DNA from: Escherichia coli | GTDB lineage: Bacteria > Pseudomonadota > Gammaproteobacteria > Enterobacterales > Enterobacteriaceae | NCBI RefSeq assembly: GCF_044324875.1 | Contig: NZ_CP172185.1 | Direction: 5' to 3' (one strand) | DNA length: 64,000 nucleotides | Shown here: in pieces, positions 12,129-39,445 of the stretch | Numbering within the stretch: the first letter of the stretch is position 1 | Layout: each line of letters starts with the position of its first letter | Translations under genes and position numbers: made by a program | The notes under the pieces: generated by a model | What the model was told of the DNA's origin: nothing | Database searches by the model: none | What the model saw: the letters and a program-made list of their open reading frames with translations, nothing else

Positions 12129-12442
12129 TTGGGGCCATTTTGACTCATAGAGGAAAGCATCGCGCACAAACTTTTTCAGTTTATTTGTTGGCTTAATATT
12201 CTATTGTTATCTTTATTTATAGATTTTTATATTGCATGAGGTGGTTTTTGGAGAGAAGAATGAGGAAGATGCGTCGAGCCACAGAAACGTTAGCTTTACA
12301 TTTGGCGGAGGTGATGTGAAATTAATTTACAAGAGAAATAATTTACATATCAAACAGTTAGATGCTTTTTATCGTTTTTTAATATTTTTATGCTTGAGAA
12401 AAAATACGTAACTTATTTATGATATGGACAGTTTGGCCCCAA
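12129..12442. promoter_or_regulatory. fimS: fimS invertible element (fim switch), 314 bp, bounded by 9-bp inverted repeats TTGGGGCCA; appears to be in phase-OFF orientation
   Basis: ttggggcca at 12129-12137 and its inverted copy tggccccaa at 12434-12442; the internal sigma70 promoter reads on the + strand, away from fimA. Confidence 0.8.
12394..12423 (+). promoter_or_regulatory. fimA sigma70 promoter inside fimS (-35 TTGAGA, 18-bp spacer, -10 TATGAT), pointing toward fimE
   Basis: ttgaga at 12394-12399 and tatgat at 12418-12423 on the + strand; fimA is on the - strand at lower coordinates. Confidence 0.7.
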
Positions 12443-12489: not shown

Positions 12490-13086
12490 TCAAACCTCTT
12501 CTCTTTTTAATTTTTCGTTTATGAGATTATTTCTTTCCCATAATCCGGCAAAACGAGCAGCATTACTGGCGGTATAACGTACAGTATGGCGAATATTTCG
12601 ATGCCCGAGATAATCCTGAATTAAACGGGTATCGGCACCACGCTCCGCCAGTTCATAACCGCAAGCATGCCTTAACATATGAGGATGAGTCTGCGTTACG
12701 GTTCCAGCTTCAATACCTGCATCGCGAATAATGCGATAGGCCTGCTGGCGAGAAAGCCGACTCCCGCGGCGAGAAATAAATATAGCGTCGGTCCGGTCAG
12801 CGCCTTTCCAGTTAGCACGTTCCTGGGTCCAGCGTTCCACGGCTTCACGCTCATCAAAACGTAACGGGTGAACGGTAGAAAATCCGTTCTTCAGTCGGCG
12901 AATATTTATTCGACCTTCATTAAGGTCAAGATCCTGATAATGCAGATCAAGCAGTTCACTAATACGCATCCCATGCCGATATGCCAACAGAATAAGACAA
13001 TAATCTCTGGCTCCCGTTGCCCCGTAACAAACCGCCTGCATCATGGCCTGAACTTCTTTACCGGTAAGATAACGACGTTTACTCAC
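12490..13086 (-). CDS. fimE: Tyrosine recombinase FimE (fim switch ON-to-OFF recombinase)
   Basis: 198-aa ORF with tyrosine recombinase motifs (HxLRH, RHTVRYT); position next to fimS. Confidence 0.9.
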   Translation of the reverse strand: MSKRRYLTGKEVQAMMQAVCYGATGARDYCLILLAYRHGMRISELLDLHYQDLDLNEGRINIRRLKNGFSTVHPLRFDEREAVERWTQERANWKGADRTDAIFISRRGSRLSRQQAYRIIRDAGIEAGTVTQTHPHMLRHACGYELAERGADTRLIQDYLGHRNIRHTVRYTASNAARFAGLWERNNLINEKLKREEV

Positions 13087-13563
13087 AATAGTAGTACTCC
13101 TGACTGAGATATATTTGAATGAATACCTATAGGAAACCTCAATCGGTCAAAATTAGCCCAATAGATAAAAAGATAACCACACACGAAGTGATGTGGCTAT
13201 CAGTCAATTACATTAAATATCATACAAAAATAAAATATCACTGATGTGACAACATCTATTTTCATTGATTTGATTCAATATAACAATAGATTGCAGAAGA
13301 TTAACTTCCAGTTGCTTAAAAAATAAAGAAAAAAGTGTGGAAACAGGAGAATTTAAGTGATGTGTAAATTTATGAATGATTTTGTTTATTTATTTTGAAG
13401 AACATAAACCATTGGATTTTGTATGGGTATGGTTAACTTAATGTTTATTATGATAATTAAGAATCACACTTACAATAACATCAATTAATAAATGGTTAAT
13501 CATTTTTGATATATCGTAAGAATAATGTAGTTTTTAACACCATCCCTGGTATCTCAACTATCT

Positions 13564-14166
13564 CTATAAAACAGCGTGACGCTGTCGTCCTCTGGCTCTA
13601 TCCCAGATGCCGTAAAAACGCCCTGCATTACTGGCGGTATACCAGACAGTATGACGAATATTGCGATGCCCAAGATAATCCTGGATAAGTCGCGTATCTA
13701 TTCCCATATTCGCCAAAGCAAAACCACACGAATGGCGTAACATGTGCGGATGAATCTCCAGTGACAACCCGGCATTACCACCAGAAGTCGAGATAATATG
13801 GTAAAACTGTTGCCGAGAAAGCGGATTCCCCTTACGTGATAAAAATACCCACTCGCTCTCAGCATGCGGGTACGAAGTACGGATACTCAACCAGTTTTTT
13901 AAAGCCTGAACTTCTTTGTTCAATAGCGGGTGCGTTGTTGAAAAGCCTTTTTTTAATCGATGGATATATATACACTTTGCCTTAAGATCAATATCCGAAA
14001 TCCTCAATCGACAAATTTCACTCGCCCGGAAACCATGAATAAAACAAAGCAAAGTCAGACAATAATTACGTGCTGCATGAGGCCCGGTATTTGCTGCTTT
14101 AAGGAGTGACTCGATTTCACTATGGGTAAGGAAGTTCCTTTTTTTGTTATCAGCCTTATTCTTCAT
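13564..14166 (-). CDS. fimB: Tyrosine recombinase FimB (bidirectional fim switch recombinase)
   Basis: 200-aa ORF, paralogue of FimE with the same recombinase motifs. Confidence 0.9.
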   Translation of the reverse strand: MKNKADNKKRNFLTHSEIESLLKAANTGPHAARNYCLTLLCFIHGFRASEICRLRISDIDLKAKCIYIHRLKKGFSTTHPLLNKEVQALKNWLSIRTSYPHAESEWVFLSRKGNPLSRQQFYHIISTSGGNAGLSLEIHPHMLRHSCGFALANMGIDTRLIQDYLGHRNIRHTVWYTASNAGRFYGIWDRARGRQRHAVL

Positions 14167-15179
14167 CGTTTTCCCTTATAATTACAGACGCGCACTAGCT
14201 GTGCTGGGTTAGCAATAATCCAACATTTTAATCCTGATTATGTTTATAAAAGCGAACGTTTGCTTAATAACTAACGTAAGTGGACCAGTTCTTCTGAGCG
14301 AACTTAAATGGAGTAGCGATAGTTACTTATAATAACTTTGCCATACAAACGCCATGCTCTTGCATGCTATGTACCTTTATATATTTATCAATCTGGTACG
14401 AATCTAATAATAACCCTCATCATTAATGCAACTAATCTTATCTATATATCATGTGATATGTTCTGTAACAAGTAAAATCAACATAAAAAATTCAGCAAAA
14501 TTTAATATTCGTTCAACTAGCCGTCTCACATATGACATTATTAGTCAACTCCACTTGCCACAAAATGGCTATTTCATGGAACGCAGTAATTTCTTAGTGG
14601 CTATTATCAAGCTAATTCTTAGGTCCCTAGCGATTATTCCTGGCTGGTTCGTCAGTTTAGGTCATGAGATTGTTACATTCCTTTTTATCCTGGAGATATG
14701 GGGGAACGCAGGCGACGCTTTTTCATCTACATCCGTTGGTAAATATGGCTTTGGTCACTACGACTTAAACCTTCCTCAATCACAGCTATTCGCCGGGCGA
14801 TACGGCAAACAAACTAAGTGAAACATCATCCTGAAAACGCCAACATCAACAAGCCTCTCCAGATCGACATCAGGAGTGACCAGTTACAAGCCACAAACCA
14901 AGAAACATATTTCATGATGAGAATTATGCTCAGCCTGATGGCGGGTAAACCCTTATTTTCACCAAGCTCACTGAGTTAGCTTGCAAAGCTTCCTTTGTTT
15001 AGATTCTAAATAAATTATTTATAAAACATATAGTTAAAAGAAAATCTTTAGTTTTTGAAGACCACCGCAATTGTTCGTCTGGCTTCACATGGCATCTGCC
15101 TCTTAGAAAAAGATCGACATATTTTGTGACACGAATTGCAAATCTGGTTTTGTTGTATGGATTGCGTGATTTTTGATCT

Positions 15180-15194
15180 GGTATAACAGGTATA
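15180..15194. promoter_or_regulatory. NanR-type operator (tandem GGTATA repeats) in the fimB-nanC intergenic region
   Basis: ggtataacaggtata read directly; GGTATA repeats are the known NanR recognition unit; about 420 bp upstream of nanC. Confidence 0.5.
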
Positions 15195-15617
15195 AAGGTG
15201 CACCACGATAGTCAATGAAACTGGGCATCTCGCAATCTATGGCAAACATCACTTCAGTTCTTTCTCATCGGGTGATGAAAACGCACTTCAGTCTGAAAGG
15301 AATATGAAAATGAGATCAACAGACACTCTATTTTATGACTCTGGGTAAAATGGATTGAGTAAGTGATATAGCTTACGAACATTCAAATCAATTAAACATC
15401 AGAAGAGATTTTATACTCAGGTATTTAATCTGGTTCTCTGTTTATTTAAATAATGTGGAAAGAGAATTTTCACAGGAGACCTTATACAAAAAATATAAAA
15501 TAAGCTACCCGTTGCCAAAGACACTATAAGCCTGGCAAAAAATATTACACAACATAAATGCTAATTGTTTATGCGGGCTTTGTATTGCTTTCTGTATCCT
15601 ACAAATGAGTGAAATTT

Positions 15618-16334
15618 ATGAAAAAGGCTAAAATACTTTCTGGCGTATTATTACTGTGCTTTTCGTCACCATTAATTTCTCAGGCTGCGACACTGGACGT
15701 ACGTGGTGGATATCGTAGCGGAAGCCATGCCTATGAGACTCGACTCAAAGTCAGTGAGGGATGGCAAAATGGATGGTGGGCAAGCATGGAAAGTAATACC
15801 TGGAATACCATTCATGATAATAAAAAGGAAAATGCCGCACTCAATGATGTTCAGGTTGAAGTTAATTACGCGATTAAACTTGATGATCAATGGACGGTGC
15901 GCCCGGGAATGTTAACGCATTTTAGCAGCAACGGCACACGCTACGGACCCTACGTAAAACTGTCCTGGGACGCGACAAAAGATCTTAATTTTGGCATTCG
16001 CTATCGTTACGACTGGAAAGCTTACCGACAACAAGACTTATCCGGTGATATGTCTCGTGATAACGTTCATCGTTGGGATGGATATGTCACTTACCATATT
16101 AATAGTGATTTCACCTTCGCATGGCAAACGACGCTATACAGCAAACAGAATGATTATCGCTATGCAAACCACAAGAAATGGGCGACGGAAAATGCCTTTG
16201 TTCTACAATACCATATGACGCCCGATATTACGCCATACATAGAATATGACTACCTTGACCGCCAGGGTGTTTACAACGGCAGAGATAATTTATCGGAAAA
16301 CAGTTATCGCATTGGTGTGTCATTTAAACTGTAG
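15618..16334 (+). CDS. nanC: N-acetylneuraminic acid outer-membrane channel NanC (KdgM-family porin)
   Basis: Start at MKKAKILSGVLLLCFSSPLISQA signal peptide; 238 aa; ends in aromatic residue typical of beta-barrel proteins. Confidence 0.9.
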   Translation: MKKAKILSGVLLLCFSSPLISQAATLDVRGGYRSGSHAYETRLKVSEGWQNGWWASMESNTWNTIHDNKKENAALNDVQVEVNYAIKLDDQWTVRPGMLTHFSSNGTRYGPYVKLSWDATKDLNFGIRYRYDWKAYRQQDLSGDMSRDNVHRWDGYVTYHINSDFTFAWQTTLYSKQNDYRYANHKKWATENAFVLQYHMTPDITPYIEYDYLDRQGVYNGRDNLSENSYRIGVSFKL

Positions 16335-16353
16335 TAGACAGGAGACAGTCACA

Positions 16354-17460
16354 ATGAATAAAACAATAACGGCGCTTACTATCATAATGGCTTCATTTGC
16401 CGCAAACGCGTCTGTATTACCGGAAACTCCTGTGCCATTTAAAAGTGGTACTGGAGCAATTGATAACGACACTGTCTACATTGGTTTAGGTAGCGCAGGT
16501 ACGGCATGGTACAAGCTGGATACACAGGCCAAAAATAAAAGCTGGACAGCGTTAGCTGCATTCCCTGGCGGACCGAGAGATCAAGCAACCTCGGCATTTA
16601 TTGATGGCAATCTGTATGTGTTTGGCGGCATTGGCAAAAACAGCGAGGGCTTGACTCAGGTATTTAATGACGTACACAAATACAACCCCAAAACCAATAG
16701 CTGGGTTAAATTGATGTCGCACGCGCCGATGGGCATGGCGGGCCATGTGACTTTTGTACACAACGGCAAGGCTTATGTTACTGGCGGTGTTAACCAGAAT
16801 ATCTTCAATGGCTATTTTGAAGATCTCAACGAGGCAGGAAAAGATTCAACCGCTATAGATAAAATCAACGCCCACTATTTTGACAAAAAAGCAGAAGATT
16901 ATTTCTTCAATAAGTTTCTGTTGTCTTTTGATCCCTCAACACAGCAATGGAGTTACGCTGGCGAATCTCCCTGGTACGGGACGGCTGGTGCGGCGGTTGT
17001 GAATAAGGGTGATAAAACCTGGCTTATTAATGGCGAAGCCAAACCAGGATTGCGAACGGATGCCGTATTTGAACTTGATTTCACCGGTAATAATTTAAAA
17101 TGGAATAAGCTTGCTCCCGTCTCATCACCAGATGGCGTCGCTGGCGGTTTTGCAGGCATGAGCAATGACTCACTGATATTTGCCGGAGGGGCCGGATTCA
17201 AAGGTTCACGGGAAAATTACCAAAACGGTAAGAACTATGCGCATGAAGGCCTGAAAAAATCATATAGCGCTGATATTCATCTTTGGCATAACGGGAAATG
17301 GGATAAATCGGGCGAATTATCGCAAGGTCGGGCCTACGGAGTATCATTGCCCTGGAATAATAGTTTATTAATTATTGGCGGTGAAACTGCAGGCGGCAAA
17401 GCAGTGACGGATTCAGTTTTGATCTCTGTGAAGGATAATAAAGTCACAGTACAAAACTAA
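16354..17460 (+). CDS. nanM: N-acetylneuraminate mutarotase NanM (Kelch-repeat beta-propeller)
   Basis: Start at MNKTITALTIIMASFAANA with GGAG ribosome-binding site at 16341-16344; 368 aa. Confidence 0.9.
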   Translation: MNKTITALTIIMASFAANASVLPETPVPFKSGTGAIDNDTVYIGLGSAGTAWYKLDTQAKNKSWTALAAFPGGPRDQATSAFIDGNLYVFGGIGKNSEGLTQVFNDVHKYNPKTNSWVKLMSHAPMGMAGHVTFVHNGKAYVTGGVNQNIFNGYFEDLNEAGKDSTAIDKINAHYFDKKAEDYFFNKFLLSFDPSTQQWSYAGESPWYGTAGAAVVNKGDKTWLINGEAKPGLRTDAVFELDFTGNNLKWNKLAPVSSPDGVAGGFAGMSNDSLIFAGGAGFKGSRENYQNGKNYAHEGLKKSYSADIHLWHNGKWDKSGELSQGRAYGVSLPWNNSLLIIGGETAGGKAVTDSVLISVKDNKVTVQN

Positions 17461-17524: not shown

Positions 17525-18511
17525 ATGAACGCAATAATATCGCCCGATTATTACTATGTTCTTACCGTTGCTGGTCAGTCTAATGCCATGGCGTATGGCG
17601 AAGGACTGCCATTACCGGACAGGGAAGATGCGCCTCATCCCAGAATTAAACAATTAGCGAGATTTGCGCATACGCATCCCGGAGGCCCGTCATGTCACTT
17701 TAACGACATTATTCCACTGACTCACTGCCCACACGATGTTCAGGATATGCAGGGTTATCACCATCCTCTGGCAACGAATCATCAAACACAGTACGGCACC
17801 GTTGGCCAGGCACTGCATATTGCACGGAAATTACTGCCCTTCATTCCTGATAATGCAGGGGTTCTCATCGTTCCATGTTGTCGTGGCGGCTCGGCTTTTA
17901 TCGCAGGCAGCGAAGGGACATATTCAGAACGGCACGGAGCCAGCCATGATGCTTGTCGTTGGGGATCGGATACTCCGCTATACCAGGATTTAGTCAGCAG
18001 AACGCGAGCCGCACTGGCAAAAAATCCGCAGAACAAATTCCTCGGCGTATGCTGGATGCAAGGCGAATTTGACTTAATGACCAGTGACTACTCGTCACAC
18101 CCTCAACACTTTAATCATATGGTTGAAGCCTTTCGTAGGGAGCTAAAACAATACCATTCTCAGCTTAATAATATTACTGACGCACCGTGGTTTTGCGGCG
18201 ATACCACCTGGTACTGGAAAGAAAATTTCCCTCATGCGTATGAAGCGATTTATGGCAATTATCAAAATAATGTTTTAGCCAATATTATTTTCGTCGACTT
18301 CCAGCAACAAGGTGAAAGAGGACTGACGAACGCGCCTGATGAAGATCCGGACGATTTAAGCACGGGATATTACGGTTCAGCGTACCGGTCACCGGAGAAC
18401 TGGACGACGGCACTGCGAAGTAGTCATTTCAGCGCGGCAGCCCGTCGGGGAATTATTTCTGACAGGTTTGTAGAAGCAATTTTGCGTTTGTCACATTTTC
18501 ACAAAGAATAG
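17525..18511 (+). CDS. nanS: 9-O-acetyl-N-acetylneuraminate esterase NanS
   Basis: 328-aa ORF recognised as NanS/YjhS; nanCMS synteny. Confidence 0.9.
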   Translation: MNAIISPDYYYVLTVAGQSNAMAYGEGLPLPDREDAPHPRIKQLARFAHTHPGGPSCHFNDIIPLTHCPHDVQDMQGYHHPLATNHQTQYGTVGQALHIARKLLPFIPDNAGVLIVPCCRGGSAFIAGSEGTYSERHGASHDACRWGSDTPLYQDLVSRTRAALAKNPQNKFLGVCWMQGEFDLMTSDYSSHPQHFNHMVEAFRRELKQYHSQLNNITDAPWFCGDTTWYWKENFPHAYEAIYGNYQNNVLANIIFVDFQQQGERGLTNAPDEDPDDLSTGYYGSAYRSPENWTTALRSSHFSAAARRGIISDRFVEAILRLSHFHKE

Positions 18512-39360: not shown

Positions 39361-39445
39361 TGGTGCCGAAGGCCGGACTCGAACCGGCACGTATTTCTAC
39401 GGTTGATTTTGAATCAACTGCGTCTACCGATTTCGCCACTTCGGC
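39361..39445 (-). tRNA. leuX: tRNA-Leu (anticodon CAA), leuX
   Basis: 85-nt sequence GCCGAAGTGGCGAAATCGG...ATTCAAAAT...GGTTCGAGTCCGGCCTTCGGCACCA on the - strand; anticodon loop contains CAA; encoded CCA end. Confidence 0.9.

Follow-up and report, generated by a model that had tools for sequence, protein, structure and literature searches.

The stretch of DNA analysed here, called the window, comprises 64 kb of Escherichia coli; all positions are those of the window. The interval 14167-15617 is exactly the spacer between the divergent genes fimB (ATG at 14166) and nanC (from 15618), as a sequence-only reading of the window had proposed, and measures 1451 bp. The flanking genes are the following.

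13564-14166, minus strand: fimB coding sequence, recombinase of the type 1 fimbria switch; 200-aa ORF, annotated likewise in a 99.3%-identical genome.
15618-16334, plus strand: coding sequence of nanC, a sialic-acid channel of the outer membrane, with nanM and nanS downstream; assigned from the ORF and from the annotation of related genomes.

The register and the gene coordinates are the same in the annotated 99.3%-identical genome (O169:H41). In the annotation of this genome and of K-12 BW25113, fimB and nanC flank the spacer, and nanM and a sialate O-acetylesterase gene come after nanC. The nanS ORF of the window (17525-18511, 328 aa) is intact; at the corresponding position, both the BW25113 and the O169:H41 records annotate only a pseudogene, for a partial sialate O-acetylesterase. 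The fimS invertible switch (12129-12442), which has TTGGGGCCA and TGGCCCCAA as its bounding 9-bp inverted repeats, is in the same orientation as in these two records. An island (18500-39300) lies beside a leuX-type tRNA-Leu(CAA) gene (39361-39445) and is absent from the closest genome. Its type I restriction-modification system has two HsdM-like methylases, and an AAA_21 ATPase is encoded next to a methylase/specificity fusion. Also encoded are an SF1 helicase of 1171 aa containing a PLD nuclease domain, an HNH protein and a transposase of the IS110 family.

The spacer is the largest intergenic gap within a 50-kb syntenic stretch of the 99.3%-identical genome; the next-largest measure 480 bp (fimA-fimE, which houses the fimS switch) and 477 bp (fimE-fimB). 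Its G+C content is 36.4%, versus 46.8% for the window, in agreement with its description as AT-rich. When complete E. coli genomes were searched by megablast, the spacer was matched in 5,109 of 5,426 (at least 80% coverage in 5,020), and almost all matches were chromosomal. In DH10B and NDM6, the match does not include the 200-260 bp of the spacer nearest to fimB. In strain U13A (L095, positions 1-300), fimB is interrupted by an ISL3-family element, ISEc53. Conservation was assessed on an alignment of the spacer from the window and 11 diverse E. coli strains (95.2-99.3% identical), hereafter the 12 strains.

The elements centred on the GGTATA repeats are given first.

15180-15202, plus strand: NanR operator ONR; GGTATA-aca-GGTATA (15180-15194) and a degenerate third repeat, GGTGCA (15197-15202).
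15175-15178: Dam site GATC, one nucleotide before ONR, an arrangement also seen at the other NanR operators; present in 12 of the 12 strains.

The tandem identified from the sequence as a NanR recognition repeat, GGTATAACAGGTATA at 15180-15194, reads GGTATA-ACA-GGTATA and contains the pair of direct GGTATA repeats, at least two being expected at 2-3 nt from each other, that characterizes a NanR operator. Three perfect repeats, as found at nanA, are not present: the third unit is GGTGCA in all 12 strains. The repeats lie in a 26-nt block, TGATCTGGTATAACAGGTATAAAGGT, which is identical in the K-12 nanR-nanA spacer and upstream of nanX/yjhB. The operator precedes a sialic-acid operon, nanC-nanM-nanS, and the sequence on either side of it is homologous to that of the nanA and nanX promoters. 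NanR binds GGTATA repeats cooperatively: two correctly spaced repeats suffice (about 25 nM), a single one is poorly bound, and the affinity for two repeats is similar to that for three but just two complexes are formed (PMC8012715). A NanR operator has been reported for nanCMS (PMC3658417, PMC8012715), and the nanC/fimB spacer was recovered as a NanR target by genomic SELEX, with NanR still bound at this site in the presence of Neu5Ac (PMC5934670). For the K-12 sequence, which does not differ over the operator, binding of NanR and its release by Neu5Ac have been published (PMC3173223, PMC5934670). In nan operons, NanR binding occurs within 5 bp of GATC sites (PMC5155068).

An AT-rich sequence may contain GGTATA tandems by chance, without any regulatory role, and when one mismatch is allowed at least one match to GGTATAACAGGTATA is indeed obtained in 11 of 100 shuffles of the window. 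The match at 15180-15194 is nevertheless exact, with about 0.01 exact matches expected from base composition per 64 kb and 0.0002 in the spacer, and no other match occurs in the window, whether or not one mismatch is tolerated. Moreover, identity with the nanA and nanX operators extends over 26 nt within homologous flanks, the site is unchanged in the 12 strains inside an otherwise polymorphic spacer, and binding of NanR to the fimB-nanC spacer has been published (PMC3173223, PMC5934670). Sequence identity to operators that are proven already refutes a fortuitous motif, whose probability is practically negligible.

The 21-nt core of the operator is found, without any mismatch, in 90 stretches of a one-genome-per-species collection. 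At nearly all of the roughly 85 other enterobacterial loci matched, it belongs to a nanR-nanA spacer; many species are represented (Citrobacter, Enterobacter, Salmonella, Kluyvera, Rahnella and others). Among these matches, the search for fimB-nanC spacers of other Escherichia yielded only one confirmed fimB-linked copy, on an E. coli-like contig (CAUHML010000277.1, L016); a short sequence from E. coli E69 (L038) probably carries a second one. Contig L016 (3.3 kb) is binned as 'uncultured Bacteroides sp.' and carries the NanR operator and a fimB sequence 100% identical to that of E. coli; its presence in a Bacteroides genome most likely results from binning contamination.

The operator had been placed between the divergent fimB and nanC promoters. 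It does lie between the two genes, but homology with the nanA promoter puts the nanC transcription start at about 15190-15205, so that the operator would be contiguous with the nanC promoter or overlap it, instead of simply separating two promoters; relative to the predicted fimB start, it is located at about 744-766 bp on the upstream side.

The suggestion that a spacer of this size contains further regulatory sites is borne out by two published NagC operators and two published SlyA operators (see below), to which IHF-like and Dam sites are added.

15118-15140, minus strand: NagC operator ONC1 ('fimB1', TGCAATTCGTGTCACAAAATATG); exact match to the published site (PMC3098098).
14906-14928, minus strand: NagC operator ONC2 ('fimB2', CATAATTCTCATCATGAAATATG); exact match to the published site (PMC3098098, Table 1).
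15009-15023: candidate IHF-like site(s); two overlapping one-mismatch matches to WATCAANNNNTTR, midway between ONC1 and ONC2.
15125-15140: CRP-like site TGTGACACGAATTGCA, overlapping ONC1; 2 mismatches of 10.
15112-15115: Dam site GATC, 2 nt from ONC1; TATC in 2 of the 12 strains.

A NagC position matrix was built from eight sites of the list given in the FITBAR paper (PMC3098098), both fimB sites being excluded. Of 63,978 window positions, ONC2 ranks first and ONC1 fifth. ONC1 and the core of ONC2 are invariant in the 12 strains. Regulation of fimB by NagC requires two sites (PMC5401889). The two operators are 212 bp apart, a spacing that would allow cooperative binding through a DNA loop, with the IHF-like match at its midpoint. 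No exact IHF consensus was found within the spacer, the candidates all having one mismatch. An IHF site midway between both NagC operators was reportedly described by Sohanpal et al. in 2007. The CRP-like element aligns with equivalent elements upstream of nanA and nanX.

The fimB-proximal part of the spacer includes the following features.

14167-14436, minus strand: predicted fimB 5′ untranslated leader, about 270 nt; start back-calculated from published distances.
14443-14471, minus strand: putative fimB promoter; -10 hexamer TATATA (14443-14448) and -35 hexamer TTGTTA (reverse complement of TAACAA, 14466-14471), 17-bp spacer.
14604-14615, minus strand: SlyA operator OSA1; TTAGCTTGATAA on the fimB strand, TTAGCATGATAA in K-12, with one substitution (14610).
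14619-14630, minus strand: SlyA operator OSA2 (CTAGGGACCTAA on the fimB strand); exact match to the sequence in PMC3173223.

In the work of McVicker et al. (PMC3173223), the NanR and NagC operators are located about 470-760 bp upstream of the fimB start and two SlyA operators at -167 to -194. Both the SlyA and the NagC/NanR distances (the latter about -470 to -760) place the fimB start at 14436/14437. TATATA is found 7 nt upstream of this position on the fimB strand, and the block 14417-14466 is invariant among the 12 strains. The leader segment is highly conserved in the same strains; its RNA fold z-score (+1.14) indicates no excess structure. The 12-bp sites close to TTAGCAAGCTAA are present at -167 to -194 of fimB, OSA1 agreeing with the SlyA consensus at 9 of 12 positions, as does the K-12 site. 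Position 14610 in OSA1 is polymorphic: A in the window, O157, O169 and U13A; T in K-12 and five others; G in ETEC4073 and LF4-1. SlyA acts independently and opposes H-NS, whose coverage extends over about 500 bp on the upstream side of the fimB start and 150 bp on its downstream side (PMC3173223).

On the other side of the operators lies one long presumed leader.

15195-15617, plus strand: presumed nanC leader, about 420 nt; start predicted to within 10 nt from a promoter architecture homologous to that of nanA.

The nanC, nanX and nanA promoters (window 15095-15420, L104 5352-5872 and L004 11915-12075) are homologous beyond the NanR operator. The regions upstream of nanC and nanX align over about 295 nt at 65% identity, including a 77-bp core of 84% identity (E 4e-21); a second block has an E value of 0.001. 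Besides the operator, this homology spans the NagC1/CRP-like element on one side and, on the other, about 200 nt of leader. The distance from operator to ATG is 438 nt for nanC, 434 nt for nanX and 60 nt for nanA. Together, the alignment and the nearly equal distances of nanC and nanX indicate a duplicated promoter-leader module. A distant BLAST search with the nanC leader in all complete E. coli genomes revealed no further paralogue. A hairpin common to the nanC and nanX leaders was looked for by eye and the idea was dropped: in nanX, nothing corresponds to the nanC stem CATCAC...GTGATG.

At about 15195-15420, the initial 200 nt or so of the nanC leader are some 65% identical to the leader of nanX and are conserved within E. 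coli about as well as the adjoining coding sequence. This segment could represent a control element that acts after initiation and is shared by the accessory sialic-acid operons, such as a leader peptide, a target of an sRNA or a protein, or a Rho-dependent attenuator. Such a function is considered unlikely. Neither an RNA structure signal nor a conserved small ORF was found in the long leader, and the fold z-score of the nanC leader (-0.04) indicates no excess stability. Alternatively, the leader homology is a mere relic of the promoter duplication. This homology may be less documented than the rest of the region.

The number of variable columns per 50 bp in the alignment of the 12 strains differs along the spacer.

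fimB-proximal 350 bp: 0-6 (14417-14466 invariant).
Centre, 14617-15116: 7-19, a 12-bp indel included.
15117-15216: 2-4.
Presumed nanC leader: 2-7.

The centre is about four times more variable than the ends, and 15113-15204 is nearly invariant. Strain A13 carries a 12-bp insertion at about 14685. This pattern is that expected of two promoter-leader modules and discrete operators amid less constrained DNA.

The absence of a credible ORF, already remarked from the sequence, is supported by the comparisons. The longest ORF of the spacer (131 aa, 14426-14821, plus strand) is cut to 73, 88 or 105 aa in 7 of the 12 strains; it has 131 aa in four strains and 135 aa in one, these variations resulting from stops and frameshifts. 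No match was obtained with Pfam for the 10 longest spacer ORFs or with NCBIfam for the five longest, and no RefSeq feature lies under the spacer match in 25 genomes among the matches listed.

The length of the spacer, threefold that of any other gap in 50 kb, could nonetheless betray a hidden gene for a small RNA or a small protein. Conservation is higher in the 400 bp next to nanC and the 350 bp next to fimB than in the centre, a 30-aa ORF (15215-15307) is intact in nine of the 12 strains, and a 12-14-codon ORF starting at 15304/15310 is preceded by a Shine-Dalgarno-like AAGGA. The conserved flanks are, however, accounted for by the two long leaders and their promoters, the 30-aa ORF is broken in three of the 12 strains as the 131-aa one is in seven, and RefSeq lists the tiny YthA, YthB and YtgA nearby yet nothing in the spacer. 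No Rfam match was found over 13000-17000 (E ≤ 1), in addition to the lack of Pfam and NCBIfam matches. One weak terminator-like site was detected in the spacer, for 1.0 expected, and two promoter-like sites, for 6.2 in shuffles; the scan of consensus promoters and terminators, which gave no sign of an independent transcript, under-calls and missed the likely fimB promoter because its -10 hexamer ends in A. The fold z-scores of the presumed leaders are those given above (-0.04 and +1.14). The suggestion of an unannotated small RNA was rejected as unsupported, since there is no Rfam match, terminators are at chance level, folding shows no excess and RefSeq is empty at this place. A hidden gene of either kind is regarded as very improbable.

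A spacer of this length might also be the decayed remnant of a former gene, with functional regulatory DNA just at its ends. The central 500 bp (14617-15116) contain 108 variable columns, with indels, versus 16 in the 350 bp adjacent to fimB, and the 131-aa ORF survives in four of the 12 strains, one more strain having a 135-aa version. The longest spacer ORFs match no Pfam or NCBIfam family, though, and the variable centre includes the exactly conserved ONC2 as well as the IHF-like site, which argues that it is not inert. Published deletion analysis is said to have assigned function to sites across this central stretch. A decayed gene is given as little credence as a hidden one.

The spacer is considered to be the divergent fimB-nanC control region of E. 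coli, already dissected in K-12, with a probability of about 0.93. The region is real, its sequence-only reading is essentially right, and it is already known and experimentally characterised elsewhere. The proposed control of both genes by sialic acid corresponds to the characterised K-12 system, with an identical operator sequence, and would apply here on this basis. NanR and NagC activate fimB from distant operators, and the inducers Neu5Ac and GlcNAc reduce fimB expression (PMC3173223). The gene nanC is controlled by NanR and NagC (PMC3098098, citing Condemine 2005; PMC3658417). One review gives opposite signs, NanR activating nan operons and repressing fimB (PMC4797297), whereas in the account of the primary laboratory the nan operons are repressed and fimB is activated by NanR (PMC3173223).

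The circuit would operate as follows. Without sialic acid, NanR dimers would occupy the GGTATA repeats (15180-15202), overlapping or abutting the nanC promoter, and nanCMS would be repressed. NagC would bind the two 23-bp operators 212 bp apart, looping being probably aided by an IHF-type bend between them. From about -470 to -766 of the fimB start near 14436, NanR and NagC would increase fimB transcription, and the FimB recombinase would turn the fimS switch from OFF to ON. Close to fimB, SlyA bound at 14604-14630 would counteract the H-NS coating of the AT-rich DNA. Neu5Ac would release NanR, and GlcNAc-6-phosphate would release NagC; nanC would then be induced, fimB expression would fall and fewer cells would switch type 1 fimbriae on. 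As NanR and NagC would repress nanC locally and activate fimB distally, sialic acid and GlcNAc would raise nanC expression and lower fimbrial switching. Given the identity of the operators with those of K-12, the same circuit very likely operates in the present strain.

The region links the decision to produce type 1 fimbriae with sialic acid and GlcNAc, mucus sugars released in host inflammation, hence its relevance for colonisation and urinary tract infection. The link between these sugars and fimbriae was established about twenty years ago, and the intact region found here means that the standard circuit is carried.

Three known systems can be compared with the spacer. The first is the K-12 fimB-nanC (yjhA) region, known from the Blomfield and Plumbridge laboratories, which is the same locus with the same gene order: 1452 bp versus 1451 bp in the window, collinear, 96.4% identical and without rearrangement. 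The sequences of ONR, ONC1, ONC2 and OSA2 are identical and all spacings are kept. About 50 substitutions and a few 1-bp indels distinguish the two, mostly in the variable centre; one base differs in OSA1 (14610), and K-12 has an extra Dam site GATC at about 15046, absent from the window. The second is the nanA (nanATEK-yhcH) operator of Enterobacteriaceae, which has in common with nanC the GATC and, next to it, the block TGATCTGGTATAACAGGTATAAAGGT, as well as an upstream homology in which a CRP-like half site occurs at equal distance. It has three perfect GGTATA repeats and lies 60 nt from the ATG, whereas the third repeat of nanC is GGTGCA and the distance is 438 nt; unlike that of nanA, the nanC operator also acts on a second, distant gene, fimB. 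The third is the operator of nanX-nanY (yjhBC), a locus found in a minority of strains (about 15%; PMC10088187) and surrounded by IS elements in K-12. It resembles nanC from the NagC1-like/CRP-like element through the operator to about 200 nt into the leader, but its third repeat is perfect and it has no divergent fimB partner.
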